From a virus (Duplodnaviria; Heunggongvirae; Uroviricota; Caudoviricetes): a stretch of DNA of 64,000 bases. Where the stretch lies: positions 5,058 through 69,057 of the IMG/VR virus record IMGVR_UViG_3300019845_000023. One strand, 5' to 3'. Below, in pieces: positions 5,615-19,606 of the stretch. The stretch's first letter is position 1, and each line of letters starts with the position of its first letter. The notes beneath the pieces are model-generated. The model saw only the letters and a program-made list of their open reading frames with translations. It was not told the origin of the DNA and ran no database searches. The translations under genes were made by a program, and so were the position numbers.

Positions 5615-5730
5615 ATTTATTTGCAGAGAGGTAAAACTCATAAAACCCTTATCCGCTATCAAAGATACTGTCCGTTTTTCAGGAACGCCCAGAGTTGCTT
5701 CATATCTTTGAAGTTTTAATCTCTTTCTCA

Positions 5731-5775
5731 TTTTCTATAAATATTATACCATATTTTATAGAAAAAGTCAAATTC
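5731..5775 (-). promoter_or_regulatory. consensus promoter block
   Basis: TTGACT-17-TGGTATAAT. Confidence 0.55.
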
Positions 5776-5787
5776 TTTTCTGCTATT

Positions 5788-5873
5788 GGTCGGTAGGGAG
5801 GGACTCGAACCCCCAGCGTTTCAATGTCACTGTTTTACAGACAGCTTGCTTCACCCAGTTTGCATACCTACCG
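5788..5873 (-). tRNA. tRNA-Tyr (GTA), class II
   Basis: long variable arm; loop CUGUAAA. Confidence 0.6.
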
Positions 5874-5980
5874 ATTTGGTGGACATTCTACGCTCATCAG
5901 CGACAGTAGCCCTCACTGGGTTGCAATTTGGTTCTTTGTTAAAGGAGTTCCTCTCTTGCAACTGAAATCCCATCTCCTAT

Positions 5981-6057
5981 TGGTGCCGCCGAGAGGACTC
6001 GAACCTCCGACCTCTCGGTTATCAGCCGAGTGCTCTAACCAGCTGAGCTACGACGGC
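5981..6057 (-). tRNA. tRNA-Ile (GAT)
   Basis: loop CUGAUAA. Confidence 0.65.
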
Positions 6058-6146
6058 ATTTGGTGGCAATTAACGTCTTGCCGCACGACATATGGGTTAT
6101 TATTTTTGTACCTCTCGTAACCTCTTTTGTTCTTAATCGAGCCTAT

Positions 6147-6219
6147 GGTGTGGGATAAGGGAATTGAACCCTCGACACCAGTATGGCAAACTGGTATTTT
6201 ACCACTAAACTAATCCCAC
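6147..6219 (-). tRNA. tRNA-Gly (GCC)
   Basis: loop UUGCCAU. Confidence 0.6.
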
Positions 6220-6222
6220 ATT

Positions 6223-6299
6223 TGGCGAGCACGAAGGGACTTGAACCCTCAACCTCTCGGGAGACAACCGAGCGTTCTACTCATTTGAACTACGCACCC
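6223..6299 (-). tRNA. tRNA-Asp-like (GTC), atypical (U37, no GG in D-loop)
   Basis: loop UUGUCUC. Confidence 0.4.
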
Positions 6300-6392
6300 A
6301 TTTAATTTCTTACTTGCCGCAACGCACCTCACCAATCTTTCAATTGCAGGGAGTTGCACCCTATTCATTGCGACTTTCAGAGGGTTACCCCT

Positions 6393-6468
6393 TGGCGATT
6401 CCGACGGGACTCGAACCCGTAACTGTAGCGTGACAGGCTACTGACTTAACCAGTTAATCGACAGAACC
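6393..6468 (-). tRNA. tRNA-Asp (GTC)
   Basis: T-arm GCGGGTTCGAGTCCCGTC identical to E. coli Asp; loop CUGUCAC. Confidence 0.65.
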
Positions 6469-6511
6469 ATTTATCGGAAGCTTTTCCTCCAGAGGACGGT
6501 TTACCAACCGA

Positions 6512-6558
6512 TTTTCTATATATATTATATCATAATTTTTTCAGAAAGTCAAATTTTT
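6512..6558 (-). promoter_or_regulatory. consensus promoter block
   Basis: TTGACT-...-TGATATAAT. Confidence 0.6.
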
Positions 6559-6559
6559 A

Positions 6560-6856
6560 TTAGGTTATATCCTCGAAATCGCTTTCATCTACACCATACT
6601 CATCGAAGATTTCCTCTTCATTCTCGTCAGTGATTTCAACGATGTCGTAACCACAACCCTCAAGGAACTCATCAAACTCTTCGTCTGTGTAAGAGCCTTC
6701 CCAGCCGAACTCAAGGTGAGTCCAACCTTCTGCGTAATCATAGAGACCTTCTTCCATATAAGCCGCAGCCTGCTCTTCATTTTCTGCGATAAGGAAGCGT
6801 CTGTCATCTGTACCACTGTAACCACAGTAGTAAGTAGCCATATATTTATTTGCCAT
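6560..6856 (-). CDS. hypothetical acidic protein
   Basis: ORF track. Confidence 0.5.
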   Translation of the reverse strand: MANKYMATYYCGYSGTDDRRFLIAENEEQAAAYMEEGLYDYAEGWTHLEFGWEGSYTDEEFDEFLEGCGYDIVEITDENEEEIFDEYGVDESDFEDIT

Positions 6857-6858
6857 TT

Positions 6859-7044
6859 TTATTCTCCTTCGTAAATCTTTTTAAGGTCGAGGTAAAGCTG
6901 GTAAGCATCTACATAAGTAGAATTGTAACCGCCTTCGTTAATTGCAACGACCACATCTCTGTCAAGGAAACCATTTCTTATGAAAGTAACTTCATAGCCC
7001 TCGGTCATTTCTGCCGCTTCAAGAACTATTTTTTCATTTTCCAT
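6859..7044 (-). CDS. hypothetical protein
   Basis: ORF track; promoter 7065-7111. Confidence 0.45.
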   Translation of the reverse strand: MENEKIVLEAAEMTEGYEVTFIRNGFLDRDVVVAINEGGYNSTYVDAYQLYLDLKKIYEGE

Positions 7045-7064
7045 TTTTGTTCCTCTCTTTCATC

Positions 7065-7111
7065 TTTTCTATAAATATTATATCATATTTTATAGAAAAA
7101 GTCAAATTTTT
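7065..7111 (-). promoter_or_regulatory. consensus promoter block
   Basis: same motif. Confidence 0.6.
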
Positions 7112-7118
7112 ATTTGTA

Positions 7119-7207
7119 TGGTCGGCAGGGAAGGACTCGAACCTTCAAGACCCCTAAGGGCAACGGGGTTACAGCCCGCGACGCTACCAGTTACGTTCTA
7201 CCTACCG
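7119..7207 (-). tRNA. tRNA-Tyr (GTA), class II, second copy
   Basis: loop CUGUAAC; long variable arm. Confidence 0.55.
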
Positions 7208-7303
7208 ATTTGGTTGACGTTTAAGTCCGCCTCGCTGCTCATACCCGTTTTTGTTTCGACCGTGAGAACTACATTTGCTCCAAAACTCACTATAAACTTG
7301 TCG

Positions 7304-7381
7304 TTGGCGATACCGACGGGACTCGAACCCGCAACCTCTGGAGTGACAGTCCAGTGCTCTACTCTATTGAACTACGGCACC
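7304..7381 (-). tRNA. tRNA-Asp (GTC), second copy
   Basis: loop CUGUCAC. Confidence 0.55.
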
Positions 7382-7499
7382 ATTTAATTGGAGCGATTAA
7401 GCGAACAGAGGTGTCGCTCCAGTGCAGTCGCTGTGACGTTATCCACACCCTCTTGTAGCGTTTACCATATGACTATTAAGCTACCACAATTTTCGTTTT

Positions 7500-7585
7500 T
7501 GGCGGGACGGACAGGATTCGAACCTGCATAGGAAATAAATTCCGACGGTTAACAGCCGCCTGCCTAACCGTTAGGCTACCGACCC
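7500..7585 (-). tRNA. class-II-shaped tRNA with anticodon GTT (Asn-like)
   Basis: 16-nt variable arm; loop CUGUUAA; one U-U in acceptor. Confidence 0.4.
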
Positions 7586-7588
7586 ATT

Positions 7589-7665
7589 TGGCGGGAAGTA
7601 TAGGACTCGAACCTATGACACCGCGGTTAACAGCCGCGTGCTCTAACCAACTGAGCTAACAACCC
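7589..7665 (-). tRNA. tRNA-Asn (GTT)
   Basis: loop CUGUUAA; acceptor has two U-U mismatches. Confidence 0.5.
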
Positions 7666-7692
7666 ATTTAAAATTGTCTTTCTCTCTTGACC

Positions 7693-7739
7693 TTTTCTAT
7701 AAATATTATATCATATTTTCTAAAAAAAGTCAAATTTTT
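7693..7739 (-). promoter_or_regulatory. consensus promoter block
   Basis: same motif. Confidence 0.6.
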
Positions 7740-7757
7740 ATTTGTTATTGAAGATTA

Positions 7758-7835
7758 TTGGTCGGGCATCGGGGACTCGAACCCCGAACTTACTGATTAA
7801 GAGTCAGTTACGCTAAACCAATTGCGTCAATGCCC
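7758..7835 (-). tRNA. tRNA-Lys (CTT)
   Basis: perfect acceptor; loop CUCUUAA. Confidence 0.7.
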
Positions 7836-8093
7836 GATATCTTAGGGAGCAGTACCACTCCCTAACGAAGTAAGATTACTCCGAGTTGGTTCGTTAAGCT
7901 TGCCAACTACTCACCCCGTTACCCTACACCTGCAACGGTAGATGCCAACTCTTACTCTGCTGACGAGGGAGAGTCTATATCCGACCTACTCTCACTACGG
8001 GACAAGGATTTAACCATCTAACCCTCCTCAAGGTGTCCGTTTTATGCTTGGCGAGGACAAATCCAAGGTTACTACTCGGCTAACCACACCGTA

Positions 8094-8169
8094 TGGGGCT
8101 GGCGACAGGAATCGAACCTGCAACCTTCCGCTTACAAGGCGGACGCACTACCTATTGTGCTACGCCAGC
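8094..8169 (-). tRNA. tRNA-Thr (TGT)
   Basis: perfect acceptor GCUGGCG; loop CUUGUAA. Confidence 0.7.
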
Positions 8170-8188
8170 ATTTCTATCTTGTGCCCTT

Positions 8189-8263
8189 TGGAGATACTGG
8201 TGGGAGTCGAACCCACGACTCCAGTTTTGCAGACTGGTGTCTTAGCCTCTTGACGACAGTATC
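8189..8263 (-). tRNA. tRNA-Cys (GCA) with Glu-type D-arm
   Basis: loop CUGCAAA; D-arm UCGUCAAGAGGCUAAGACA. Confidence 0.55.
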
Positions 8264-8286
8264 TCCAAAAGGCACAAGAATTAAGG

Positions 8287-8667
8287 TTAATCGTCTTGTG
8301 ATATTATGTAATATGATATTTGAGTGTTTTCAATAAATTCGTCCACCCATTTGTTATAGTCTACGTCTTTATAAGCAAAGCCGAGTCTATTAAACAGATG
8401 ATTAGCGGTTTCATAGAGGTCTCCGCCATCTTCATAGAGAGATTCAACAACCCAGTCCATTAAGTCCTTTTCGTCACATCTTAAGCCACGAATGACTCCT
8501 GTATGGGTTACGTTATATTGCTCATTTGTCCAAGTGTACTCGACATCGTGGACGAGATTCTTTAGAGCTTCCTTTGCTTTCTCTATGTAATACTCAAGTT
8601 CACCGAGAACGCCTTCTATCTCTTCATAATTACCATCGGCGATTATATCTGATACGAAATCAAACAT
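8287..8667 (-). CDS. hypothetical protein
   Basis: ORF track; promoter 8685-8732. Confidence 0.5.
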   Translation of the reverse strand: MFDFVSDIIADGNYEEIEGVLGELEYYIEKAKEALKNLVHDVEYTWTNEQYNVTHTGVIRGLRCDEKDLMDWVVESLYEDGGDLYETANHLFNRLGFAYKDVDYNKWVDEFIENTQISYYIISQDD

Positions 8668-8684
8668 CTTTAAACCCCTTTCTA

Positions 8685-8732
8685 ATTTTCTATAAATATT
8701 ATATCATATTTTATAGAAAAAGTCAAATTTTT
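8685..8732 (-). promoter_or_regulatory. consensus promoter block
   Basis: same motif. Confidence 0.6.
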
Positions 8733-8763
8733 GATTTTTGTTTTTTGTTTTTCTTGGAGAAAT

Positions 8764-8838
8764 TGGCACCCTCGGTAGGAATTGAACCCACATCTCAACG
8801 TCCGTAGCGTCGCGTCCTATCCTTTGAACGACGAGGGC
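8764..8838 (-). tRNA. tRNA-Arg (ACG)
   Basis: loop CUACGGA. Confidence 0.6.
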
Positions 8839-8841
8839 ATA

Positions 8842-8918
8842 TGGTCGGAAGTGCGGGATTCGAACCCACAGCCTCGTGCGTCCAAGGCACGCCGTCTACC
8901 AAATTGACGTAACTCCCG
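8842..8918 (-). tRNA. tRNA-Pro (TGG)
   Basis: loop CUUGGAC. Confidence 0.6.
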
Positions 8919-8961: not shown

Positions 8962-9438
8962 TTAATCTAACAATGCTCAGTCTTTCACCTCAGTAAGAAG
9001 ATTAATTTGTTTCTCCAATTCATAATCTTTTGCGAAAGAAATTCCAGCAGTTTGACCATTTTTTGGAGGAGCAAACCTTAAAGTTTTTTCTGTTGAACAT
9101 TCTTTTATTGGGACAATATAACATTTACCTTCCCAATATGTTGCAAAGAAATCAACATCTGCATCAGAATACTTTGAGCGTTTTACTCCGCTACAGTTTA
9201 CTACTGTACTTCTACAGCTAAAACATATAGCATTGTCTGTTCCCTTCTTTAAGCAAGAAGTTTTGACTTGAATTTTATAAAGATGTTTATCAATTTCGAC
9301 AATGAAATCGTACTTTGAGCAGTCTCCATAAGGAATACTTACTGTATATCCCAATTCGACAAAAGCCGTTAAACACCTTAATTCTGTTAAATTACCTTTT
9401 TGTTTACTATCCATTGTTATTTGAGTTTGTTAGACTAA
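8962..9438 (-). mobile_element. 477-bp insertion in a tRNA anticodon loop carrying a PD-(D/E)xK ORF, bounded by 12-bp inverted arms
   Basis: arms at 8962-8973 and 9427-9438 are reverse complements (11 of 12). Confidence 0.5.
8977..9414 (-). CDS. PD-(D/E)xK (Hjc / I-Ssp6803I-like) nuclease encoded inside a tRNA anticodon loop
   Basis: motifs G..E..L..GY.V...YGD...DFIVEIDK..IQVKT; fills an insertion in a Thr-like tRNA gene. Confidence 0.5.
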   Translation of the reverse strand: MDSKQKGNLTELRCLTAFVELGYTVSIPYGDCSKYDFIVEIDKHLYKIQVKTSCLKKGTDNAICFSCRSTVVNCSGVKRSKYSDADVDFFATYWEGKCYIVPIKECSTEKTLRFAPPKNGQTAGISFAKDYELEKQINLLTEVKD

Positions 9439-9516
9439 TCAATTGCTCTACCTATTGAGCTACGGCAGCATCAACACGGGAGGTGTAAAGCCCTCCCGAA
9501 AACTTAAGGGAAGATT

Positions 9517-9681
9517 ATCTGATAGGTGGCTTCTCAGTAACCACCTGAAACTTGAAATAGCCGTCGATGTTTGCACCAGTTGCAGGACAACGCTGAACAA
9601 CGGCATCATTCTTTTCTGCGAAAGCCTTAGCGGACTTTCTGTCTGAAAAACGTGAGATGTAAGTCTTCTTATCAGCCATAG
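9517..9681 (-). CDS. hypothetical small protein (54 aa)
   Basis: hand translation; promoter 9710-9747. Confidence 0.4.
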
Positions 9682-9709
9682 TTTTTTCTTCCTTTCTGAT
9701 TTTCTATAA

Positions 9710-9747
9710 ATATTATATCATATTTTAGAAAAAATGTCAAATTTTTT
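9710..9747 (-). promoter_or_regulatory. consensus promoter block
   Basis: TTGACA variant. Confidence 0.6.
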
Positions 9748-9752
9748 ATTGC

Positions 9753-10016
9753 TTAATCGAGGAACAAACCTACAAGTCCCATAAGTCCAAAACCGCCGAT
9801 AAGTAAACCAAGCGGAATTAGAGTCGGTGCAACAACTATACCCCAGCCGATTGCACAGACGCTTGCCAGCTTCAGAATACATAAAACGATTGAGATTACA
9901 AAGCCAGCTTCGATACCGATTGCTCCCAGAAATGCAGTTAACATTCCCAGAAAAGCACTTACTAATGCCAAAAAGTCTTTCATAATATTTCTTTCCTTTC
10001 TGTACTTACGTTTCAT
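9753..10016 (-). CDS. small hydrophobic membrane protein (holin-like?)
   Basis: two or three predicted TM helices; true start probably an internal ATG. Confidence 0.45.
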   Translation of the reverse strand: MKRKYRKERNIMKDFLALVSAFLGMLTAFLGAIGIEAGFVISIVLCILKLASVCAIGWGIVVAPTLIPLGLLIGGFGLMGLVGLFLD

Positions 10017-10036
10017 AGGATTTTCTTCCTTTTTGA

Positions 10037-10083
10037 TTTTCTATAAATATTATACCATAAAATCTAAAAAATGTCAAATTTTT
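10037..10083 (-). promoter_or_regulatory. consensus promoter block
   Basis: same motif. Confidence 0.6.
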
Positions 10084-10447
10084 ATGTGAGTGGGATTTCT
10101 ATACCGTAGAGTTTCGCAGTCATAAACACACGATTTAAACGGATAGAACGGTCCTTATTGGAGAGCTGTTCCCAATCCTTATAAGTAGAATGTTGTAGTG
10201 CCGCGACCTGAGAAACTGGTGCACCCATTAATATCATTCGCTCAAAAAGAAGCGAAGCATTAAACGAGTGTAAAGCACCCACTGCCGCGTCGCAGTCAAA
10301 TTCTACATTAGTAACGTCTGGGAGCTGCGGCACCTCTTTCTTAACGAACTTACCCGTAGCGAAAGCCTCTCTGCCACACTGATTAACACAGCGGACTGCC
10401 AGTGCTTCAGTGTCATACTCCTTGCCACAAAGACAGCAATGATACAT
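10082..10447 (-). CDS. hypothetical protein with N-terminal Cys cluster
   Basis: ORF track. Confidence 0.5.
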   Translation of the reverse strand: MYHCCLCGKEYDTEALAVRCVNQCGREAFATGKFVKKEVPQLPDVTNVEFDCDAAVGALHSFNASLLFERMILMGAPVSQVAALQHSTYKDWEQLSNKDRSIRLNRVFMTAKLYGIEIPLT

Positions 10448-10644
10448 TATCTCTTACCTCCCTTGAAAAAGAGATAAAAACGATACCACCACTTCTTCTT
10501 TCGTCTCTCCTTAGCTTCACGCTGTCGGAGTCTTTCCTTAGCTTTAATAGACCTCGGAAGTCGAGGACCTGTACTTAAGCCTGTCTTGGGGTCTTTGACT
10601 GGACCTGCTGGCAATATGCCATTTGGTGTAAAAGGTGATAACAT
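10447..10644 (-). CDS. hypothetical basic protein
   Basis: ORF track. Confidence 0.4.
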   Translation of the reverse strand: MLSPFTPNGILPAGPVKDPKTGLSTGPRLPRSIKAKERLRQREAKERRKKKWWYRFYLFFKGGKR

Positions 10645-10659
10645 AAGCGTTCTCCTTTC

Positions 10660-10995
10660 TTACAGCTCATCATACATCGGTGCATACTTACGGATATGTC
10701 TGTGTACAACTACACCGAGTACCTTTTCATTACCGCCGACTTCCTTTATATAAATGAAGCCTTTATCAGTAGTTACAGCACCACGTCCCTTGGGGCAGGT
10801 GAACTTCTTAGCCTGAAGCTCTACTGCAGCAAGGTCGATAGTGTTCATTTCCATACGACCGTTGTTTGCAATGATAACAAAGACAGGCATACCATTCTTG
10901 AGGTCTGGCTTGCAATCAAGCAGACGACCTGTCCACTTAACATCATACTCTTCATACTGAGCTTTGACGATTAAATGTGTCTTTACGAGTGGCAT
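10660..10995 (-). CDS. hypothetical protein (start MPLVK)
   Basis: ORF trimmed so it does not overlap the promoter block. Confidence 0.5.
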   Translation of the reverse strand: MPLVKTHLIVKAQYEEYDVKWTGRLLDCKPDLKNGMPVFVIIANNGRMEMNTIDLAAVELQAKKFTCPKGRGAVTTDKGFIYIKEVGGNEKVLGVVVHRHIRKYAPMYDEL

Positions 10996-11017
10996 TTCTA
11001 TCATTCCTTTCCTCATC

Positions 11018-11064
11018 TTTTCTATATATATTATAACATATTTTATGAGAAAAGTCAAATTTTT
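11018..11064 (-). promoter_or_regulatory. consensus promoter block
   Basis: same motif. Confidence 0.6.
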
Positions 11065-11069
11065 ATTTG

Positions 11070-11357
11070 TTATTTTTTGTCTTTAAGAGTGTAATTTCCT
11101 TCCTGAAATGAAACCCTTGTGCCGTCCTTAAGAGTTATTGTGATGATGTCATTAGCGTGATATTCATATTCAGCAGAAACACTTACTATATCTTCAGTTT
11201 TATAGGTTTCTCCATTGACTACGAGATAATTATACTGTCTCATTTCGTCCTCAAAAGAGTTGCTTGTGGCACACTGTGAAAGAAAAACGAGTATAAAGCA
11301 AATTACCAAGCAGATAATTACAGTATAGAAGGTAGCTTCTCCGTCATAATCTCTCAT
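11070..11357 (-). CDS. membrane-anchored hypothetical protein
   Basis: ORF track; N-terminal TM helix. Confidence 0.5.
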   Translation of the reverse strand: MRDYDGEATFYTVIICLVICFILVFLSQCATSNSFEDEMRQYNYLVVNGETYKTEDIVSVSAEYEYHANDIITITLKDGTRVSFQEGNYTLKDKK

Positions 11358-11399
11358 TATAAACTCCTTTCAATCAATAGGGTGATAACTAAAAGTGGA

Positions 11400-11615
11400 T
11401 TACTTTGTGCCGCCCTCAAAGATTTTCATTCTGATGATAGGGATAGTGAGCATTTCTGCTCCCTCCCAGTATTCCTTGAAAGTCTTAAATGGACGATTTG
11501 CAGAAATCTTATACATATGATACTGCTCCATCATCCAAGCGTCTCTCTCTTTTTGGGTAAGAAATCCAATAGAGGAATCCTGTATAATTACCGTATAAAT
11601 CTTATCTATCTTCAT
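11400..11615 (-). CDS. hypothetical protein
   Basis: ORF track; - strand preferred over the overlapping + ORF. Confidence 0.4.
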   Translation of the reverse strand: MKIDKIYTVIIQDSSIGFLTQKERDAWMMEQYHMYKISANRPFKTFKEYWEGAEMLTIPIIRMKIFEGGTK

Positions 11616-11617
11616 TC

Positions 11618-11917
11618 CTACCTCCAGTAACGGTCAATAAGTCTCTGCATATTCTCCCTGCCCACAGGGTTCTGTGTGTGAAGCTCAACAGGGTAGAAAC
11701 GCTCTGTCTCTGCCATCCAGTCAAGCAACTTTATACCGTCGCCGCCGTCCTTAGCCCACTGACCGAGGTCGTGGTCCAGACTGAGCTGGATAGTTGTGTC
11801 CTCGATATTCTCTGCGGCACAAATAACTATCTTAGCCTGATTGACAGACTTAACTGCCCACCAAGTCTTATCAGGTGCAGGACGAACATCGTCCAGCCAT
11901 ATCTTAATAACTCTCAT
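11618..11917 (-). CDS. hypothetical protein
   Basis: ORF track. Confidence 0.5.
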   Translation of the reverse strand: MRVIKIWLDDVRPAPDKTWWAVKSVNQAKIVICAAENIEDTTIQLSLDHDLGQWAKDGGDGIKLLDWMAETERFYPVELHTQNPVGRENMQRLIDRYWR

Positions 11918-11933
11918 ATTCGTCCTCCATTTC

Positions 11934-12464
11934 TTAGAAATTGATATATGCGTTTATATCTCCGATTAGCTTGAACACAGTGTAATTAGGCTCTTCGTCT
12001 ACATCGCTCCACCAGTTGGTGACCTGCGTAATAGTCTCCCAGCCTTTCTCACCTGCGTTTGGAAACTCCATTCGTTCCCACTGTCCCCTTAATATCTCAA
12101 GAGGGATTTGTCTTTTACGAGAGAAGTTACCCTTTACGCAGCGCTCCCAAGGAGCTGTTACCCATATACAATGGCGTGTAAATGTAGGAAACCACTCTAC
12201 AAACTGCTGTCTCTGACTTGCTGTCAAAGAGTTAGTTGTAAGTATAACATCTTTTCCTGCAATCTCAAGGTCATGCAGGTCCTGATATAACGTATGCCAT
12301 ACTGTAAAGGTATTCTTACGAACCCTTTCGTCGCCGTTGATTTTAGCATAGTATTCATCAACGTCAAGAACCTCTGTGATACTTGGGTTTAAGTTATGGA
12401 TATAATGCGACAGAAATGTCTTGCCGCCGCCACTTATTCCGCATACAAGATAAAAATTTCCCAT
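11934..12464 (-). CDS. P-loop NTPase / kinase (GISGGGKT)
   Basis: Walker A motif near N-terminus. Confidence 0.45.
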   Translation of the reverse strand: MGNFYLVCGISGGGKTFLSHYIHNLNPSITEVLDVDEYYAKINGDERVRKNTFTVWHTLYQDLHDLEIAGKDVILTTNSLTASQRQQFVEWFPTFTRHCIWVTAPWERCVKGNFSRKRQIPLEILRGQWERMEFPNAGEKGWETITQVTNWWSDVDEEPNYTVFKLIGDINAYINF

Positions 12465-12481
12465 AATGTACTCCTCTCTGT

Positions 12482-12827
12482 TGGTGGAGGCGAGGAGAAT
12501 CGAACTCCTGTCCGAACCTCGTCATATCTATCGTCTACAAGCTTAGTCCATTTTTTTATACAAGTTTCACGCCTTAAAGGACAAACAGTCTGTTAACTCG
12601 TCTTGTCAAGATAGTCCATCAGGCACAGACAAGAACGTGCAAGTGAACCGTTTTTTATATAGACCATATCACAGTGTAGCTTTCACTGTTGAATGATATG
12701 GCAAAGTGTTAAAAGTGCTGCTCAGGCAGCGATTGCATAATCTGCGTTTATATTTAAAAGTGGCTATATGGGTGCCGCCCGCTTGCAGATAGGGAACTCA
12801 GAAATCCGTCGAAACCTTTACGCCCCC
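12482..12827 (-). ncRNA. ssrA: tmRNA (SsrA-like)
   Basis: 5' GGGGGCG...GGUUUCGACGG; 3' GGACAGGAGUUCGAUUCUCCUCGCCUCCACCA; G3-U70; internal tag frame ...ADYAIAA-UGA. Confidence 0.6.
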
Positions 12828-12833
12828 ATTTCA

Positions 12834-12880
12834 TTTTCTATAAATATTATAACATACTTTATAGAAAATGTCAAATTTTT
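12834..12880 (-). promoter_or_regulatory. consensus promoter block (immediately upstream of tmRNA)
   Basis: TTGACA-...-TGTTATAAT. Confidence 0.6.
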
Positions 12881-12922
12881 CTTTTGTTAAGAAACACAGA
12901 ATGTGCGATATTTACTATCGCA

Positions 12923-13636
12923 CTAAACTGCTCTCTTTTTTGCAAAGTAAATTGTCTCAGAGTTATATCCCTCTGGGTCAAATCCTGCTTCCATTGTAGG
13001 GAGATTCTCTACTTCGTAGTATCCCATCTTGTGTGAGAACTGGTCCTTAAGCTGGTCATACTTTACGAAGTGGAAGTCGTGGTCACTACCACGATATGCG
13101 ATGCCGTACTCGTCTGGATTGAGCTCTTCCCAACCATTAATCTCTCTCATATCAGAGAAAGCCTTGAGCATATTAAGTGCCGCGATACGTACTGCAACTG
13201 GTGTGTTGTAGTTGTGGTCATTATAGAGCTGGAGAGCCTCTTCTGTTGCGTCCTCAATAGAAATACCTTCAGGCAATTCAATCTCGGAAAGCAACTCAAG
13301 AATATTTGTCTCGCCATCGCTTACTTTTGTCTGAACATAGTCATCAAGCTCGTCCTGATTAGGAGTGTCCATTTCTTGGAAAGCCCAATAAGAGTCAAAG
13401 CCGTTAGACATAAGCCACTTCTCTTCTGCATTTTCTGCGATTGAGCTTTCATTCATAATAGGAAGAAACCAGTTGAAAGTTTCAAGAGCATAGCCGCCGC
13501 AGTTGAATGCGAACTGATTTACATTATCAGCGTTTCTTACACGAACAGAGTTGTAAGGGTCTTCCTGCTCAACTTCAGTGACAAGAGTACCATTGTAAGC
13601 ATAAGCATAAACCATCTTGCTGAACTTATCACTCAT
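12923..13636 (-). CDS. hypothetical protein (237 aa)
   Basis: ORF track; ends in TAG, then 11 more sense codons before TAA. Confidence 0.55.
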   Translation of the reverse strand: MSDKFSKMVYAYAYNGTLVTEVEQEDPYNSVRVRNADNVNQFAFNCGGYALETFNWFLPIMNESSIAENAEEKWLMSNGFDSYWAFQEMDTPNQDELDDYVQTKVSDGETNILELLSEIELPEGISIEDATEEALQLYNDHNYNTPVAVRIAALNMLKAFSDMREINGWEELNPDEYGIAYRGSDHDFHFVKYDQLKDQFSHKMGYYEVENLPTMEAGFDPEGYNSETIYFAKKRAV

Positions 13637-13639
13637 TAG

Positions 13640-13725
13640 TTATCCTCCTTCGCTGCGGCACACATTGCCATAGCAAATGCACCTACAATTCCTCCAAATA
13701 TTGCCCCAAGAATAAACTGTGCCAT
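13640..13725 (-). CDS. small hydrophobic peptide (28 aa)
   Basis: hand translation; GGAGG RBS. Confidence 0.3.
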
Positions 13726-13739
13726 TTCAATATCCTCCT

Positions 13740-14099
13740 TTACTGTACTTCTACAATACGATAATCGCCGTAGTCAAAGTATCCTTCGTCAGCAATAAAA
13801 TCGGCAACAAGGTCTTTTCCTGCATCAGCAAGTGACATAAGTAAATGCTGAACGTGATAAGGACGGACCTGCGGAGGAAGATTCGCATCAGCATAACGAG
13901 CCACCGCAAGCTCAACCTCGCCAGTTTCAAAGTAGCCACTTAATGGCAGGTCGATGTCGCCCTCGTCAAGATTTGCAAAGCTATAAAATTCGAGAAGCTC
14001 CTTATCGGGAGCATCTTCGAGTATGGTGAGCAACAGCTCGGCCATATCATCGAATACTCTGGGGTCCATATCAGTTGACTTAGAAGTTATTGCCCACAT
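13740..14099 (-). CDS. hypothetical acidic protein
   Basis: ORF track. Confidence 0.5.
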   Translation of the reverse strand: MWAITSKSTDMDPRVFDDMAELLLTILEDAPDKELLEFYSFANLDEGDIDLPLSGYFETGEVELAVARYADANLPPQVRPYHVQHLLMSLADAGKDLVADFIADEGYFDYGDYRIVEVQ

Positions 14100-14115
14100 A
14101 ATTCATTCTCCTTTC

Positions 14116-14499
14116 TTAGAAGCCCGCTATTCTTATATTGTATTCGCCGTCAGTCTCATCTGTTAAACCAAAAGCAAGACGACTCTCATAAGACCGAAGG
14201 TCTCTGTAACCCCACTCTTTCATCTGAGCTACGATTGCATCGAGAAAATCCTCTGCGCCGCCTGCTTCGCCACCCTCGCTATCCCACAGACCAGCATTTG
14301 AGAAGTCAATCATTATAATCGCTGAACCAGCCTGTGCCGCCATATCAACGAAATCGAGAACATTTTCAAGTATCTCGTCCTCAAAGATTACTGCACCCGC
14401 CATATAATAGTTTGTGTCATCATTGGTTATTCCCTGAAAATCCTGAATGGCGAACATATCTGTTCCCCAGTCCTCAAAACTTTTAAATGTTACCTGCAT
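14116..14499 (-). CDS. hypothetical protein
   Basis: ORF track. Confidence 0.5.
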   Translation of the reverse strand: MQVTFKSFEDWGTDMFAIQDFQGITNDDTNYYMAGAVIFEDEILENVLDFVDMAAQAGSAIIMIDFSNAGLWDSEGGEAGGAEDFLDAIVAQMKEWGYRDLRSYESRLAFGLTDETDGEYNIRIAGF

Positions 14500-14888
14500 T
14501 ATTCTTCCTCCTCATATTCATCTTCGTCTGTGCCGTCGCCGCCCTCTTCTTCAAATGAATCTATCCACATCTGTGTGATAAGAATACCATTGACAGAAAG
14601 AGTGTGGAGAGCGTCTGAATTTTCAACTTCCTTGATAGCATCTTCGCATCGCTTTATTTCACGAGTCATCATACAACTCCAGTGAAACATATCTTCTCTT
14701 GTGTCAGAGCAAGGGTCAAATTCAGCATTATTAAGTTCACGCTTCAATGCTTTCATTCTGTCTTCGAACAGCATTTTAGCCAGTGTCTTTGCCTTATCCA
14801 TTGTGGAGCAGACATCGACCACATCATATACAGAGTTATCAGTAGCCCCGCGTCTTTTATGATAGACTATGAATACTGTACCGTCCAT
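14499..14888 (-). CDS. hypothetical protein
   Basis: ORF track; promoter 14909-14956. Confidence 0.5.
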   Translation of the reverse strand: MDGTVFIVYHKRRGATDNSVYDVVDVCSTMDKAKTLAKMLFEDRMKALKRELNNAEFDPCSDTREDMFHWSCMMTREIKRCEDAIKEVENSDALHTLSVNGILITQMWIDSFEEEGGDGTDEDEYEEEE

Positions 14889-14908
14889 ATAATCATTCCT
14901 TTCTCATC

Positions 14909-14956
14909 TTTTCTATATATATTATATCATAAAATATGAAAAAAGTCAAATTTTTT
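14909..14956 (-). promoter_or_regulatory. consensus promoter block
   Basis: same motif. Confidence 0.6.
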
Positions 14957-14962
14957 ATAGCT

Positions 14963-14987
14963 AAAAGAAAAAGAGCCTCGCGGCTCT
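14963..14987 (-). terminator. rho-independent terminator
   Basis: AGAGCC-GCGA-GGCUCU then UUUUUCUUUU. Confidence 0.5.
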
Positions 14988-14993
14988 TTCTCA

Positions 14994-15386
14994 TCACTTA
15001 ATAAGTTCTTTGATTTGTCTTGTCATTTCCAGCTTAGAGTCCGAAAGATTTGCAAGGTCATAGTCGAGTTCGCCGATACGCATCTCGAAATTTGCCTTCA
15101 TTTCCTTCATCACATTGTAATAGAAACTATACATCTGACGCAATGCCTTCTTACGAGCTATCTTCTTAGCATTTTCAACGTTGTTGACATCGCCGTCCTT
15201 GAGCTTAGCTACGCCGACAAATGCCTGCGGGCGCTGCTTCTGGAACTGAGGGAAACGCTCCTGATTAATATTGTAATATACGGCAAGAGCCTTCATATAT
15301 CGGTCGTCTTCAACGGACGGGGTTATAGTAACCTTGACCGCCCCGTTGAAAACCTTATAGTCGGAAGTGTACTTAGTTTTAAACAT
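14994..15386 (-). CDS. hypothetical protein
   Basis: ORF track. Confidence 0.5.
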   Translation of the reverse strand: MFKTKYTSDYKVFNGAVKVTITPSVEDDRYMKALAVYYNINQERFPQFQKQRPQAFVGVAKLKDGDVNNVENAKKIARKKALRQMYSFYYNVMKEMKANFEMRIGELDYDLANLSDSKLEMTRQIKELIK

Positions 15387-15988
15387 CAGCCGAGTTCCTC
15401 CATAAGCTTCATAAGACCATTAACGATACCGAGACCAGCCTCCATAGCGCAGATAAGCTCCTTCTTCTCGTCGTCTGAAGTAGCCTTATTCCACTCGCTA
15501 CGAAGCTCAGCAATCTTTATCTTGCAGTCAGCCTTCTCCTTAGCAGTAGTAGCCATCTTCATACCTATTTCCTCAAAAGCCTTGAGCTTCTCTTCGAACT
15601 TAGCCTCAAGAGGATTTGTCTTGGCTGTAGGCTCGTCAATCTTAAGAGCTGCCTTAAGTGCAGACTCAAGGTCTGAACCTGTAGCATTACCGCTGAACTC
15701 GTCTACCACACCAAAATCGGCACGCTTACCCTTGTAAGCTGAGATACCCTTGCCGTTCTTGAACTTCTTGCCGATTGTGAAGGTGTACTCGTATTCAGTA
15801 GAAAGAGAGTTGTACTCTTCAACAGCCTGCTCGAAAGCCTCTCTTGCGAGCAACATTGTGCTCTCGGCATCCTTCAATGCCTTTGTCTTATCTTCCTTCT
15901 TAGCGCACTCTGCTACGCACTGAGCCATAGCAGTTGCTGAAGTATAGGTTTTACCACAAATAGGGCATACATATGTATTCATCATCAT
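15386..15988 (-). CDS. zinc-ribbon plus coiled-coil protein
   Basis: CPICG...CVAEC N-terminus; overlapping 240-aa + ORF is low-complexity. Confidence 0.5.
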   Translation of the reverse strand: MMMNTYVCPICGKTYTSATAMAQCVAECAKKEDKTKALKDAESTMLLAREAFEQAVEEYNSLSTEYEYTFTIGKKFKNGKGISAYKGKRADFGVVDEFSGNATGSDLESALKAALKIDEPTAKTNPLEAKFEEKLKAFEEIGMKMATTAKEKADCKIKIAELRSEWNKATSDDEKKELICAMEAGLGIVNGLMKLMEELG

Positions 15989-16000
15989 AGTCCTCCTTTA

Positions 16001-16318
16001 TTAGTCAAAAAGATAGTGCATATAGCTCTGGTACTGAGCATCTACCATATTGATGTTTCCACATCTTTCCTTTACGGTGTACTCGACCTTTGCACCAGTC
16101 TCGCCTATCTTAACCTTCTTCTTCTCTACCTCATTCTCACAGATAAGGATATTTGTGCCCTTGAGGTAGGTCATCTGTCCGCCACAGATGCGGCACTTGC
16201 CAAACTTGGCTTTCTGAGAAGCCTTCTTCTCTTCGTCGGTCTTGGGTTCATACTTGCCCTTAGCCTTTTTGAGATTGAGCTTTTCCCAGTCTCCCCACTG
16301 TACATATGTTCTTGGCAT
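16001..16318 (-). CDS. Lys-rich zinc-binding protein
   Basis: CRICGG...C motif. Confidence 0.5.
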   Translation of the reverse strand: MPRTYVQWGDWEKLNLKKAKGKYEPKTDEEKKASQKAKFGKCRICGGQMTYLKGTNILICENEVEKKKVKIGETGAKVEYTVKERCGNINMVDAQYQSYMHYLFD

Positions 16319-16376
16319 TATATAGCCCTCCTTAAAAATATAGATATATAGTTAATTCACTATGTGAAGTGAAATC

Positions 16377-16574
16377 TTAGTAATAGAAGTCTAAGTCGTC
16401 ATTATACGACTCTTCTCTGTCCTGCTGTCGCTTACGTCGATATTGATTGCCGTGCGGCATATATTCGCTTTGTGAATGTTCCTGTTTCTGACGTCTCTTG
16501 TCCTTTTTCTTGAACTGATTTACTTCTCGTCTGTTCTTACTCTGCTCTTTATAAGCAGCGTCTTTTCCTGCCAT
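16377..16574 (-). CDS. highly basic small protein
   Basis: ORF track. Confidence 0.4.
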   Translation of the reverse strand: MAGKDAAYKEQSKNRREVNQFKKKDKRRQKQEHSQSEYMPHGNQYRRKRQQDREESYNDDLDFYY

Positions 16575-16687
16575 TAGAACTCTGTTCCCTCCTCAACATC
16601 GAACATATCTTCGTCGGACCATCTGTCCTCGAAGACCTCTTCACACTGTACAAAATCGAAACCGTCCATAAGATTTCTCCTTTCTGA

Positions 16688-16734
16688 TTTTCTATATATA
16701 TTATAACATCTTTTATGAAAAAAGTCAAATTTTT
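16688..16734 (-). promoter_or_regulatory. consensus promoter block
   Basis: same motif. Confidence 0.6.
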
Positions 16735-17590
16735 AATTGGTTGTGAACAGACAATCGTAGTCGAAACCGCCGTAATCAAAGATTACAGGAGTTCCGTCCT
16801 TAAGGTATCCATAGTTACCCTCGTGCATATCCTCAAGATGAACAGCATTAATCATATGAGCAAAAGCCTCAAGTGCCGCCGCACCATAAGTTCTGAGGAT
16901 AGCAAGAACAAAGTTGTTATTGAAACGAATTTCAGTCTGGTCTCTGCTTGTGTAGACCTTCTCCTTCTCGTCGTCTTCTGCCTCTATAAAGCTGTGATAG
17001 TCACCTATCTCACTTTCAGAACCAGCTACCTGTCTCTGGATATAAACAGGAATACCATTGTATTCTCCTATCCACTCATTGGGAAGGAAGATTCCAGCTA
17101 TCTCGCCGCAGTCTTCAACAGACGCACAGATTTCGTTCTCTACGTTCATAAGGTCATAGCCAGTAGTCTGAGCATCACACTCAAACTTTCTCTCAACCTC
17201 GTCGTACTCCTCGTATTCATCGTAATGACGCTGATGAGCCCAGCAAGTTTCCTGCTCTACTTCACCCTTTTCATTGAGTCTCTCAAGATAAATACGCTCT
17301 CCATAGATAGCTGTAATAGGCATCTTGATAACATATGGCTTGCCGTAAGGAATAATAACGAAACGAGAAGCTCCGTACTTGATAGTTATATCATTGTTCT
17401 CCTCAATTTCGTCATTGAAGGCGAAAGGAGTGAGAGTCTCATCGTAGAGAAGATTAGAATAAGCTACATCATAGTCGCTATCTACAGGGATATAGATACC
17501 CGTTGCATCTCTACCAAGAGCCTCCTTAAGTATAGAATAAACTTCTTCACGAAGTGCATCAGTAACGCCGATTTCGTTCATTCTATTCAC
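16733..17590 (-). CDS. hypothetical protein (285 aa)
   Basis: - ORF with promoter 17603-17649; overlapping 335-aa + ORF rejected. Confidence 0.55.
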   Translation of the reverse strand: MNRMNEIGVTDALREEVYSILKEALGRDATGIYIPVDSDYDVAYSNLLYDETLTPFAFNDEIEENNDITIKYGASRFVIIPYGKPYVIKMPITAIYGERIYLERLNEKGEVEQETCWAHQRHYDEYEEYDEVERKFECDAQTTGYDLMNVENEICASVEDCGEIAGIFLPNEWIGEYNGIPVYIQRQVAGSESEIGDYHSFIEAEDDEKEKVYTSRDQTEIRFNNNFVLAILRTYGAAALEAFAHMINAVHLEDMHEGNYGYLKDGTPVIFDYGGFDYDCLFTTN

Positions 17591-17602
17591 TCCTTTCTCA
17601 AC

Positions 17603-17649
17603 CTTTTCTATATATATTATAACATATTATATAAAAAAAGTCAAATTTT
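17603..17649 (-). promoter_or_regulatory. consensus promoter block
   Basis: same motif. Confidence 0.6.
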
Positions 17650-17651
17650 TA

Positions 17652-18083
17652 TTAGTCAGGTTCTTCGGGAAGCTTTTCATCCCAGTGAATATAAAGATAG
17701 GCTCGTCCATAATAGTAAGTAAAACTTAACTTTGAGGAGCTATGGTTTCTCGAAGTATATATATTGTCAAACCAATATCCCTGCTTAGTGAGAGTATCCC
17801 ACATTTCTTCAGAAGGTATAACAAGATATTCATCTGCGGTGAGGCAAACATAAGAACAGCCTTTATTAGCCTCTCTTTTAATTCTTTTTGTCAATTCTTT
17901 CCAAAATTTCTTCTTCTTTTGGAGAAATGCTTTTTCTTCTTCCCTCTTTATTCTTGCGGCGTTCTTTTCTGCTTCTCGTCTTATTTTATTAGCGTTAAAC
18001 ATCTTTAAACCCCTCTCCGACAGGCGGCATCTCGCCGCAGCCCGTATAATATCGTTTTCCGCAGGTACAATAAGCACCCACAT
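17652..18083 (-). CDS. hypothetical protein
   Basis: ORF track. Confidence 0.5.
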   Translation of the reverse strand: MWVLIVPAENDIIRAAARCRLSERGLKMFNANKIRREAEKNAARIKREEEKAFLQKKKKFWKELTKRIKREANKGCSYVCLTADEYLVIPSEEMWDTLTKQGYWFDNIYTSRNHSSSKLSFTYYYGRAYLYIHWDEKLPEEPD

Positions 18084-18261
18084 CTATTTCTCCGAACTCT
18101 GAATTGTATTCTACGCAATAATGCATTACGCCGTGCCCCTGCACGATGAGGTCCATCCATTGACAGACCTCTGCGTGCTTCTGTGCCCATTCATTTATTT
18201 CTGCAAGCTCGTCATTGGAAATGCGAGCGTCAGCCTTATCCCAAAGTAATCCCCCTGCCAT
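17995..18261 (-). CDS. hypothetical Cys-rich protein
   Basis: ORF track. Confidence 0.45.
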   Translation of the reverse strand: MAGGLLWDKADARISNDELAEINEWAQKHAEVCQWMDLIVQGHGVMHYCVEYNSEFGEIDVGAYCTCGKRYYTGCGEMPPVGEGFKDV

Positions 18262-19391
18262 TATGCGTCCTCCTTTAACTCAATCTTGAAAAGCGAAATG
18301 AACTTCTTGGTATCCATAGTCTCTACGGCATTTACAAGACGACCGTCGTACTCCGCGAAGTACAATGCACCGTACTTGTTCTTACCGTAGTCCTGTGCGA
18401 ACCACTTACGTGCAGTACGGTCGCCCTCCTCGAATGGATGCTCATTCTTCCAAAGAGCTACGTCCTGACGAATCTTCTCCTCTATACCCTCAGCACGGTC
18501 AATCTGATGCTTAACGTCGTCAAACACAGACTGGTACTCAGGGAAGTAAGATAAGAACTCGTAGTGGTCATTTGCACGAATAAGGTCTACGATACGCTCA
18601 AGAGTTAAAACACCATTGTTCTTTGCCTTGTGCATCTCAAAGTAAAGAAGTGTCTTAATCTTTACACGCTCATTGTACTGGTCACGAACTACGATGCCCT
18701 CATGACCCTCTGGCATATCTGCAACAAGCTGACGGTAGTCATTCTCGTTATTTAAGATATAAGCCTTTGGTATCTCAACTCTAAGCATCTTAGAGTATGC
18801 ATGAAGTGCAGGGTTAGTTAACTCGCGTAAGGTTGTCATATAACGCATAGAGAGAAGGTATACCTTAGTCTCAGGATAGTCGATGACTACCTTATTGTAA
18901 GGAGATACAAGCTCGAAAGTCCAGCAGATATTCTCGTAACGATTGCCTACAAAAGTAGACAAAGGAAGAACAGACTCGAAAAGCTCACCGAAGTTCTTGT
19001 AAGGACCTACACCCGCAAGCTCAGCCTTGAAAGCATCAATAGTACCGTTGGTAGAAAGATGCCACTTGCCACGAGCATACCATACAGACATAATAGAGCC
19101 GTCAATCTTCTCGGTTGCAACGGCAGTATTCCAGTCGAGCTTAGCTGCGTAGAACTCGTCTACATTGAAGAACTTCTTGAACGCGTAGCGAACTACACGG
19201 AAGTTGTCCTGAGAATCAAGTATAAGACCACGAGCCTCCTTGCAAATTTCCTGAGAGAAGTCGGAAGCTATTTGGTTATACTTGAAAAGAACGAAGCCGT
19301 CGTCCTCAGAAATCTTTAAGTTGTAAGGCGCATCAGCCAAAAGCTCACGCCAGTTATCGTGTGCAAGGATAAACTCCTGTATCTTTAACAT
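18261..19391 (-). CDS. RNA ligase 1 (T4 RnlA family)
   Basis: nucleotidyltransferase motif I TEKIDGS, EGIVVR motif IV, KIK motif V; start trimmed to MLKIQ after GGGAGAG RBS. Confidence 0.7.
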   Translation of the reverse strand: MLKIQEFILAHDNWRELLADAPYNLKISEDDGFVLFKYNQIASDFSQEICKEARGLILDSQDNFRVVRYAFKKFFNVDEFYAAKLDWNTAVATEKIDGSIMSVWYARGKWHLSTNGTIDAFKAELAGVGPYKNFGELFESVLPLSTFVGNRYENICWTFELVSPYNKVVIDYPETKVYLLSMRYMTTLRELTNPALHAYSKMLRVEIPKAYILNNENDYRQLVADMPEGHEGIVVRDQYNERVKIKTLLYFEMHKAKNNGVLTLERIVDLIRANDHYEFLSYFPEYQSVFDDVKHQIDRAEGIEEKIRQDVALWKNEHPFEEGDRTARKWFAQDYGKNKYGALYFAEYDGRLVNAVETMDTKKFISLFKIELKEDA

Positions 19392-19393
19392 TT

Positions 19394-19606
19394 TTATCTC
19401 TCCCTTATGTATTGCCAAAGCTGATTACCAGCTTTTAACATCGCTTTTATTTCTTTACTATTTTCAATTTGTTCTCTCTCTTCTGGAGTATAAAGCGACA
19501 TAGACCAGCCGCAGAAAGCGGGACTATCGCCTTCATCGAAATCATAATTAAATCTATCAATTATTATTTCGATTTCTTCTTTCGTGAGGTCAAGAGTTAC
19601 TTTCAT
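19394..19606 (-). CDS. hypothetical protein
   Basis: ORF track. Confidence 0.45.
   Translation of the reverse strand: MKVTLDLTKEEIEIIIDRFNYDFDEGDSPAFCGWSMSLYTPEEREQIENSKEIKAMLKAGNQLWQYIRER

Follow-up and report, generated by a model that had tools for sequence, protein, structure and literature searches.

A large phage from the rumen or gut, rich in transfer RNA (tRNA) genes, carries its own gene for transfer-messenger RNA (tmRNA). The gene, ssrA, lies on the minus strand of the 64,000 nucleotides (nt) analysed here from the caudovirus record IMGVR_UViG_3300019845_000023 of IMG/VR (positions 5,058 to 69,057 of that record; this whole stretch is called the window, and its first letter is position 1), and it carries every sequence feature of a one-piece tmRNA. 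We consider it probable that the gene is functional, that it is the ssrA of a clade of ~180-kb rumen or gut phages that read TAG as glutamine, and that it is neither a bacterial gene nor the remnant of an integration site. Phage tmRNAs are already known, and the window gene is a new lineage of that element. The new points are modest: a 7-codon tag that is fixed across a phage clade, a natural demonstration of the tmRNA modules that are under selection in a phage, and the co-occurrence of a tmRNA with TAG recoding.

A complete one-piece tmRNA gene

A preliminary description of the window, made from its letters and its open reading frames (ORFs), had proposed a phage-encoded tmRNA of roughly 346 nt on the minus strand. 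ARAGORN and the Rfam covariance model for tmRNA (RF00023), which it named as the means of checking the proposal, both score a tmRNA at exactly the interval proposed, 12482-12827 (-). The match to RF00023 reaches 123.6 bits (gathering score 47, E = 7.6e-48) and spans the model completely (1-374 of 374), with posterior probabilities that are high in the tRNA-like domain, helix 2 and the resume region and low across the pseudoknot region. ARAGORN finds 45 RNA genes in the window, namely 44 tRNA genes and the tmRNA, in which it places a tag (ADYAIAA, then stop) at gene positions 83-106 and labels it 'not identified'. The parts of the gene are as follows, with RNA position 1 at window coordinate 12827 (PK, pseudoknot; bp, base pairs).

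12482-12827 (-): one-piece tmRNA gene, complete, with CCA encoded; 346 nt; ARAGORN and Rfam RF00023
12821-12827 (-): acceptor stem, 5' strand GGGGGCG, RNA 1-7; pairs with 12486-12492, including G3:U70
12781-12810 (-): helix 2, 5' strand, RNA 18-47; from the Rfam structure line
12762-12780 (-): candidate minimal PK1, GGG(48-50)/CCC(56-58) and GGC(52-54)/GCC(64-66); read by hand
12722-12750 (-): frame-setting U78-A79, the -1 triplet AAC, and the tag frame (12745-12722) for ADYAIAA and its stop
12717-12730 (-): helix 5, GCUGC/GCAGC, with the UGA stop inside a 4-nt loop
12664-12701 (-): long hairpin in the PK2 position, CCAUAUCA/UGAUAUGG stacked on CAGUG/CACUG; read by hand
12571-12637 (-): hairpin in the PK3 position, RNA 191-229; read by hand
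12511-12542 (-): helix 2, 3' strand, RNA 286-317
12493-12509 (-): T-arm, 5-bp stem AGGAG/CUCCU with 7-nt loop UUCGAUU, RNA 319-335; 100% paired in relatives
12482-12492 (-): acceptor stem, 3' strand CGCCUCC at 12492-12486 (RNA 336-342), then the discriminator A and CCA at 12485-12482

The pairing of the two ends into a tRNA-like domain, also part of the original proposal, can be read directly: the 5' end is GGGGGCGTAAAGGTTTCGACGG (given also as GGGGGCGUAAAGGUUUCGACGG), the 3' end is GGACAGGAGTTCGATTCTCCTCGCCTCCACCA (given also as GGACAGGAGUUCGAUUCUCCUCGCCUCCACCA), and the acceptor stem GGGGGCG/CGCCUCC contains G3:U70. The gene encodes the CCA, and an A precedes it as discriminator; together with G3:U70 these are the predicted alanine identity elements, all of them present here. 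There is no anticodon arm. Helix 2, which connects the tRNA-like part to the mRNA-like part, opens with tandem G.A pairs (G18.A317 and A19.G316) and continues in three segments down to C47-G286.

The tag frame is GCA GAU UAU GCA AUC GCU GCC UGA, encoding ADYAIAA, just as first described. U78-A79 stand at -5/-4 relative to the resume codon GCA83; in E. coli the corresponding nucleotides are U85/A86, of which A86 sets the frame four nucleotides downstream (PMC2481249). Because the spacing equals the E. coli ruler, we take the 7-codon tag to be real and not a mis-call by ARAGORN.

The ORFs predicted across the interval had been called spurious, which agrees with what is seen there. The sole ORF of at least 50 amino acids (aa) that overlaps the tmRNA is on the plus strand (12396-12596, 66 aa), and the JGI gene caller placed no gene across the interval on the identical contig L039. 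The interval 12482-12827 should be masked in gene calling.

Relatives that share the tag and the gene order

An exact search of IMG/VR with the 24-nt DNA of the tag gave no match. Relatives were found in IMG/VR with a degenerate pattern for ADYAIAA and a stop, and adding the AAAY resume context yielded more of them in metagenomes. The tag is common to six further tmRNAs, in two groups. L075, L076 and L077 are close relatives of the window, with neighbouring proteins that are 95-98% identical and in unchanged order, and with tmRNAs that score 92-98.6 bits in Rfam. ARAGORN misses two of these tmRNAs (L076, 5404-5749, and L077, 698-1043, to which Rfam gives 98.6 bits); in both the T-stem is lengthened by a G inserted on one side and a C on the other, and the T-loop is changed to UUCGACC.

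The second group consists of L078, L079 and IMG/VR contig 3300021400_000027 (loci L045 and L038, ~180 kb), and its tmRNA has 342 nt, the same tag and Rfam scores of 137-141 bits. The L078-type RNA is 68% identical overall to the window tmRNA, and the neighbouring proteins of L078 and L079 are 29-58% identical to those of the window. Gene order is kept over this distance: an Rnl2-type ligase, Rnl1, four further homologues, the homologue of a 237-aa protein, and the tmRNA. Synteny this deep, at 29-58% protein identity, indicates that a tmRNA was already at this site in the common ancestor of both phage lineages. IMG sample 3300021400 is a metagenome from sheep rumen (PMC6118326), and a near-identical 186.9-kb contig (Cattle_ERR2019374_scaffold_986541) was found in a cattle sample.

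One close relative, L075 (3328-4030; contig Ga0326512_10000008, 181,757 bp), has had its entire pseudoknot region swapped for an unrelated sequence of similar length, while its tRNA-like domain, helix 2, PK1 and tag are unchanged. Pseudoknots have been replaced experimentally without loss of activity (PMC2481249), and the natural swap fits with that replaceability. The exchange suggests the replacement of a module driven by a homing endonuclease. The L075 tmRNA lacks an encoded CCA, and a homologue of a GIY-YIG endonuclease follows it directly, where the window has a kinase gene.

The 237-aa protein (12923-13636, -) is encoded upstream of the tmRNA, and neither Pfam nor PHROG matches it. Both phage lineages nevertheless conserve it, in synteny with the tmRNA (33% identity in L078 and L079); a search of IMG/VR with it found no relative. 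Its annotated stop is TAG, and under code 15, in which TAG is glutamine, the reading would extend by 11 codons.

Other viral contigs carry tmRNAs of different kinds. A separate group of large contigs (L043, L044, L046, L048 and L049; IMG/VR, 75-238 kb) has tmRNAs of 369-383 nt that are 59-63% identical to that of the window; their tag of 24 codons (DVELSTMTFED[AV]M[SA]FVGADYAIAA, then stop) has the same last seven residues as the window tag and is set by its own resume signal, UA-AAC-GAC. No protein homology to the window was seen in these loci, which are short. A tRNA-rich viral contig from sheep rumen with 8 tRNA genes (L037, 5381-5722; IMG/VR 3300021255_004061, 55 kb) encodes a tmRNA with the tag DEYEYRLAA, then stop; the 3' 35 nt of this tmRNA are identical to those of the window tmRNA, and a ThyX homologue (35% identity) is nearby.

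What selection has kept

Comparison of the window tmRNA with the L078-type tmRNA, region by region, gives the following identities.

5' tRNA-like end: 90%
Helix 2, 5' strand: 38%
PK1: 48%
Resume signal and tag: 94%
Remainder of helix 5 and pseudoknot region: 34%
Helix 2, 3' strand: 51%
3' tRNA-like end: 100%

The block of resume signal and tag is identical at 34 of its 36 nt and at 94-100% across relatives. Only two differences from the L078 type fall in the tag frame: ATC to ATT, which both encode Ile, and TGA to TAA, both of them stops. All seven acceptor-stem pairs are invariant in five distinct relatives.

Helix 2 has diverged in sequence, and its structure has been maintained by compensatory changes: all 17 of the pairs tested are 100% paired in five distinct sequences, six pairs have changed on both sides, and one pair occurs as A-U, U-A and G-C. 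The covariation score of the helix is 0.249, compared with 0.044-0.078 when the partner columns are slid, and RNAalifold agrees. These compensatory changes, along with the two independent detectors and the conserved U-A at -5/-4, support the identification of the RNA as a tmRNA. The whole pattern of conservation is what would be expected of a working tmRNA (one that is charged, enters ribosomes and is translated) rather than of a relic.

The other helices were followed through the relatives as well. The candidate PK1 pairing is kept at 73-87%, with one pair lost in the L076 type and a stronger 5-bp stem in the L078 type. For helix 5, the column-wise count reaches just 68% paired because the equivalent hairpin of the L078 type, CUGCC-UAA-GGCAG, is shifted in register. 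When the window is compared with L076 or L077, three pairs have changed in a fully compensatory way in the hairpins of the PK2 and PK3 positions: C128-G163 becomes U-A in the former, and G198-C223 becomes A-U and U199-A222 becomes C-G in the latter, in both L076 and L077. The loop of the PK3-position hairpin (GCCU...GGAC) is able to pair with downstream GUCC...AGGC (RNA 246-257), a pairing that L076 and L077 preserve by two wobble changes. Two other pairings, a helix of RNA 181-185 with 258-262 and an alternative pairing of RNA 198-202 with 236-240, were rejected, as each fits the window and not L076.

Promoter and transcription unit

The preliminary description had set the tmRNA directly downstream of a consensus promoter, and the promoter found at 12874-12846 (-), of the sigma-70 type, matches the consensus at 12 of 12 positions and has the TG of an extended -10. 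The elements around the gene, in the direction of transcription, are these.

12903-12923 (-): terminator-like hairpin GTGCGATAGTAAATATCGCAC with a T-rich tail behind it, where the upstream 237-aa gene ends
12846-12874 (-): promoter, with -35 TTGACA at 12874-12869, a 17-nt spacer ending in TGT (extended -10), and -10 TATAAT at 12851-12846
12828-12845 (-): gap of 18 nt between the -10 element and G1
11934-12464 (-): downstream P-loop kinase (AAA_33, polynucleotide-kinase-like)

Perfect promoters of the form TTGACA-N17-TATAAT occur ten times on the minus strand of the window, compared with 0.09 expected by chance (start coordinates 2786, 9712, 10049, 12846, 20896, 26156, 34338, 41489, 45552 and 46920). 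The ten have an almost identical spacer, TTTTTTATATTTTATGnTATAAT, and the set looks like a family of phage early promoters with an extended -10. Promoter, upstream terminator hairpin and leader are identical among the window, L075, L076 and L077. The upstream hairpin, terminator-like in its sequence, insulates the tmRNA transcription unit. Transcription probably starts near 12839, and RNase P would then have to remove some 11-12 nt of leader; this placing of start and processing leans on general tRNA and tmRNA biology (PMC3985003).

No terminator was seen between the tmRNA and the kinase gene, and the ribosome-binding site of the kinase (GAGGAG, 12476-12471) begins 6 nt past the CCA of the tmRNA, so that the two are probably co-transcribed in the window. 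As a conserved partner of the tmRNA the kinase was rejected: L076 has an insertion of ~470 nt at this point, and L075 has the GIY-YIG gene in its place. Homologues of the kinase in L001 and L002 (60% identity) have no tmRNA nearby.

The phage and its gene content

All 44 tRNA genes, and essentially all ORFs, lie on the minus strand. The tRNA genes form two arrays, with HNH and GIY-YIG endonuclease genes in the same regions; one GIY-YIG gene of the window is at 56875-57738 (-). Several tRNA species are duplicated (Asp x3, Met x4, Leu x6), and L076 keeps the gene order of the first array. Matches in Pfam and PHROG include RNA ligases of the T4 Rnl1 and Rnl2 types, T4 gp30.3, ThyX, a UvrD-type helicase, NADAR and SLOG domains, and HNH and GIY-YIG endonucleases; there are two polynucleotide-kinase-like P-loop kinases, one of them fused to an HD domain, and a DUF2828/vWA protein that corresponds to phrog_850, 'RNA-binding protein'. 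From this content, the region around the tmRNA is an early one that serves tRNA supply and RNA repair.

2884-8918 and 42465-48194 (-): two tRNA arrays, 44 tRNA genes in total
11618-11917 (-): protein with a cREC_REC cyclic-phosphate-processing receiver domain (E = 2.1e-21)
11618-12464, 18261-19418, 33373-34305, 39968-41449 and 51397-52320 (-): RNA-repair toolkit around the tmRNA (kinases, cREC_REC, ligases, DUF2828/vWA)

The partner protein SmpB was not found in the 64-kb window (best phmmer E = 0.11, and no PF01668 in Pfam scans), nor with the same query in the phage-type loci. The query itself was validated (Pfam, 194 bits), and as positive controls it found smpB adjoining ssrA in all 30 of the bacterial-type loci fetched, at E values of 1e-18 to 1e-38. 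The host presumably supplies SmpB.

Homologous tmRNAs lie on IMG/VR viral contigs of ~180 kb. These homologues, the gene content, the 44 tRNA genes, the ten promoters, the lack of smpB and the recoding of TAG described below all support the original claim that the tmRNA is phage-encoded, and the element is very likely a phage rather than a large plasmid.

Recoding of TAG

Two tRNA genes with the anticodon CUA, which are amber suppressors with a glutamine-like U1...A72, lie in the second array.

46667-46743 (-): tRNA gene, anticodon CUA
46747-46822 (-): tRNA gene, anticodon CUA

Two genes of the window are continuous solely if TAG is a sense codon (56875-57738, -, and 59822-60757, -). Near-identical contigs from cattle, L081 and L082, keep the in-frame TAGs, and at two positions they carry TAG in place of the window's CAG (Gln); just past the upper end of the window, three large ORFs (L081, 684-8112) hold 13, 21 and 2 in-frame TAGs. 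There are no in-frame TAGs in the early genes of the window, and the 113 called ORFs stop with TAA in 82 cases, TGA in 24 and TAG in 7. The interchange of TAG and CAG, the in-frame TAGs and the tRNA(CUA) genes together imply that the lineage reads TAG as Gln (code 15) in some genes, a recoding that published papers describe as a trait of gut and rumen phages. The stop of the tmRNA tag is TGA or TAA and never TAG. To see whether the sister lineage has the suppressor tRNA as well, IMG/VR was searched with a 15-nt pattern from its anticodon arm; this gave 30 matches, none of them on a tmRNA contig, with a pattern too short to be informative.

A link between the tmRNA and the phage's own recoding seems plausible on these grounds. 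Suppressor tRNAs create tmRNA substrates through read-through (Ueda et al. 2002, as cited in PMC3985003), and in recoded E. coli the rescue of ribosomes by tmRNA at unassigned UAG codons impairs the propagation of viruses that contain UAG (PMC6207430). We put forward tentatively, as something rather doubtful, that the tmRNA has been kept because the lineage rewires the reading of stop codons. Suppression should then lead to read-through of host and early-phage TAG stops, with ribosomes reaching the 3' ends of mRNAs, or ribosomes would stall at UAG while suppressor supply is limiting, and the load of non-stop ribosomes would go up sharply. A tmRNA made from an early promoter, its own tag never ending in TAG, would be a built-in countermeasure, and the unusually short tag might tune the fate of the rescued peptides. 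No functional coupling of code-15 recoding with phage-encoded ribosome rescue was found in the literature searched.

Relation to known tmRNAs

The window gene has the architecture of bacterial one-piece tmRNAs (RF00023), such as those of the Oscillospiraceae (for example Faecalibacterium and Ruminococcus), over the full length of the model. Its 5' 22 nt are identical to those of Oscillospiraceae-type ssrA, in which the neighbouring smpB is named as Faecalibacterium, Ruminococcus or Oscillospiraceae, and with the L013 ssrA the identity extends to the 3' 35 nt as well. Unlike bacterial ssrA, which it matches at 61-70% overall, it has a 7-codon tag where the bacterial tags have 9-17 codons, no adjacent smpB, a promoter of the phage class, and phage genes around it.

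Among cultured phages, ssrA has been reported in the Bxz1-type mycobacteriophages, in Wildcat and in Bacillus phage G (PMC4131195; PMC12484599), and the likeness lies in a full ssrA carried by a large phage with tRNA genes of its own (30 or 32 in cluster C mycobacteriophages, according to the cluster C announcements, and 18 in phage G). They differ in host group and habitat and in the recoding of TAG by the window lineage, and the phage G tag, AKLNITNNELQVA and a stop, differs from ADYAIAA. Megablast of window positions 9000-20000 against 50,697 phage records gave no match; with the tmRNA itself, blastn against the same records found similarity at the 3' end only (the longest at query 272-344), and no match covered 80%. 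The window tmRNA is thus the same kind of element as the deposited phage tmRNAs, with no sequence relationship detected beyond the 3' end, and forms a separate lineage.

tmRNA and SmpB have also been reported in metagenomic huge phages (Al-Shayeb et al. 2020; PMC7162821). The window likewise belongs to a large phage that has not been cultivated, is rich in tRNA genes and has a tmRNA detected by ARAGORN; it differs in that a phage SmpB is reported there and none was seen here. The short-tag lineage, its synteny and its pattern of conservation were worked out in the present analysis rather than in that study.

Tags ending in the same seven residues, ADYAIAA, occur in Spirochaete tmRNAs (Marispirochaeta and related; tags such as ANNNEADYAIAA), which indicates that ...IAA is a natural ending of bacterial tags. 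These tmRNAs otherwise differ from that of the window: the RNAs are 63-64% identical, which is the background level, the bacterial tags have 11-13 codons, smpB is adjacent, and the tRNA-like ends differ at several positions. The clues to the host disagree: the bacterial tags ending in ADYAIAA were all from Spirochaetes, but their RNAs are no closer than background, and the tRNA-like ends match the Oscillospiraceae type exactly. GGAG-type ribosome-binding sites precede 81 of the 113 ORFs; from these and the matches of the tRNA-like ends we lean weakly towards a host among the Clostridia, although the tag ending points to Spirochaetes instead.

How the tmRNA would act

For a functional phage ssrA, the reading that we favour, we propose the following course. 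The host RNA polymerase would transcribe the tmRNA early in infection, RNase P would trim the ~12-nt leader from its 5' end, and the host alanyl-tRNA synthetase (AlaRS) would charge it with alanine by way of G3:U70. Bound to host SmpB and EF-Tu, it would enter ribosomes stalled at the 3' ends of mRNAs, where translation would resume at GCA83; the nascent chain would gain (A)ADYAIAA and terminate at UGA, and the ribosome would be released. With its hydrophobic-Ala-Ala end, the tagged peptide would probably be a substrate for ClpXP-type proteolysis. The phage may gain extra recycling of ribosomes while the infected cell is flooded with mRNAs that are truncated or read through.

Several points weigh against this reading. 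Beyond the conservation of the gene, we infer every step of the mechanism. With no SmpB in 64 kb, function needs a compatible host SmpB or a phage smpB elsewhere. The 7-codon tag is shorter than all of the bacterial-type tags recovered (9-17 codons), and ...IAA is at most a candidate degron in the host. PK1, the pseudoknot nearest the resume codon, has at best 3 + 3 bp and is weaker in the L076-type relatives. The nucleotide identity of the tag block (34 of 36) exceeds what selection on the peptide alone would give, and RNA-level constraint or the exchange of modules could contribute to it. Finally, no capsid, portal or terminase gene was found in the window or in the 10-kb flanks read, which show unannotated ORFs.

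Alternative explanations

A tmRNA could also serve the phage as a decoy that inhibits trans-translation in the host, produced abundantly from a strong early promoter and soaking up SmpB, AlaRS or EF-Tu with no productive tagging; host quality control would be shut down, or phage proteins would be spared tagging by the host tmRNA when their ribosomes pause at in-frame UAG codons. The absence of smpB and a promoter that is consensus at all 12 positions would suit such a role, as would the harm that rescue at unassigned UAG does to UAG-containing viruses, given the many in-frame TAGs of this phage lineage. There is moreover a precedent in the mycobacteriophage DS6A, whose own ssrA derivative may likewise target the SmpB of the host: little is present beyond the tRNA-like domain, the mRNA-like part is lacking, and a molecule like this fragment strongly inhibits tmRNA, perhaps by titrating SmpB (PMC4131195). 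A decoy would need just the tRNA-like domain, however, and unlike DS6A the window gene keeps the conserved resume signal (U-A and resume codon), seven sense codons, the stop in helix 5, and helix 2, all of them preserved between lineages whose proteins share 30-58% identity; L075 keeps the tag even though its pseudoknot region has been replaced. We therefore regard a decoy as unlikely.

The window might instead be part of a large plasmid or another non-viral element with translation genes, whose tmRNA serves the element or its host. The missing capsid, portal and terminase genes would be in keeping with this, as would the lack of a PHROG match for the two ORFs submitted out of the three large TAG-rich ones beyond the upper end of the window. 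It is very improbable in view of the recoding (13, 21 and 2 in-frame TAGs, TAG/CAG interchange, two tRNA(CUA) genes), which is published as a phage trait, of the T4-type Rnl1, gp30.3, HNH and GIY-YIG genes near the tRNA arrays, and of the classing of the relatives as viral genomes by IMG/VR.

Temperate elements integrate at the 3' ends of ssrA genes. The least credible alternative makes the gene a passenger of that kind, a captured host ssrA that is functionless or kept only as an attachment site for the host gene; among the IMG/VR contigs recovered, ssrA 3' ends do coincide with the ends of contigs or prophages, and the 5' 22 nt and 3' 35 nt of the window gene are identical to bacterial-type ssrA at prophage ends (L013, for example), but an overall identity of 61-70% to every bacterial-type tmRNA recovered excludes a recent capture, the gene is full-length and driven by a phage-type promoter of its own, phage lineages that have diverged deeply keep it in synteny and conserve its parts selectively, and no integrase or recombinase family is among the Pfam matches of the 113 ORFs.

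Implications

Phage tmRNAs are listed in genome surveys, and the window locus offers a clean comparative case for how they work. By the pattern of conservation, the modules that matter are the tRNA-like ends, helix 2 (as a structure) and the 7-codon tag; the pseudoknot region, swapped out in one relative, does not. That the clade has kept the tmRNA at one genomic site across protein divergence to 29-58% identity argues for a real use of trans-translation by these phages. The phage also recodes TAG and has amber-suppressor tRNAs alongside its ribosome-rescue RNA, which suggests a link between stop-codon recoding and ribosome rescue.

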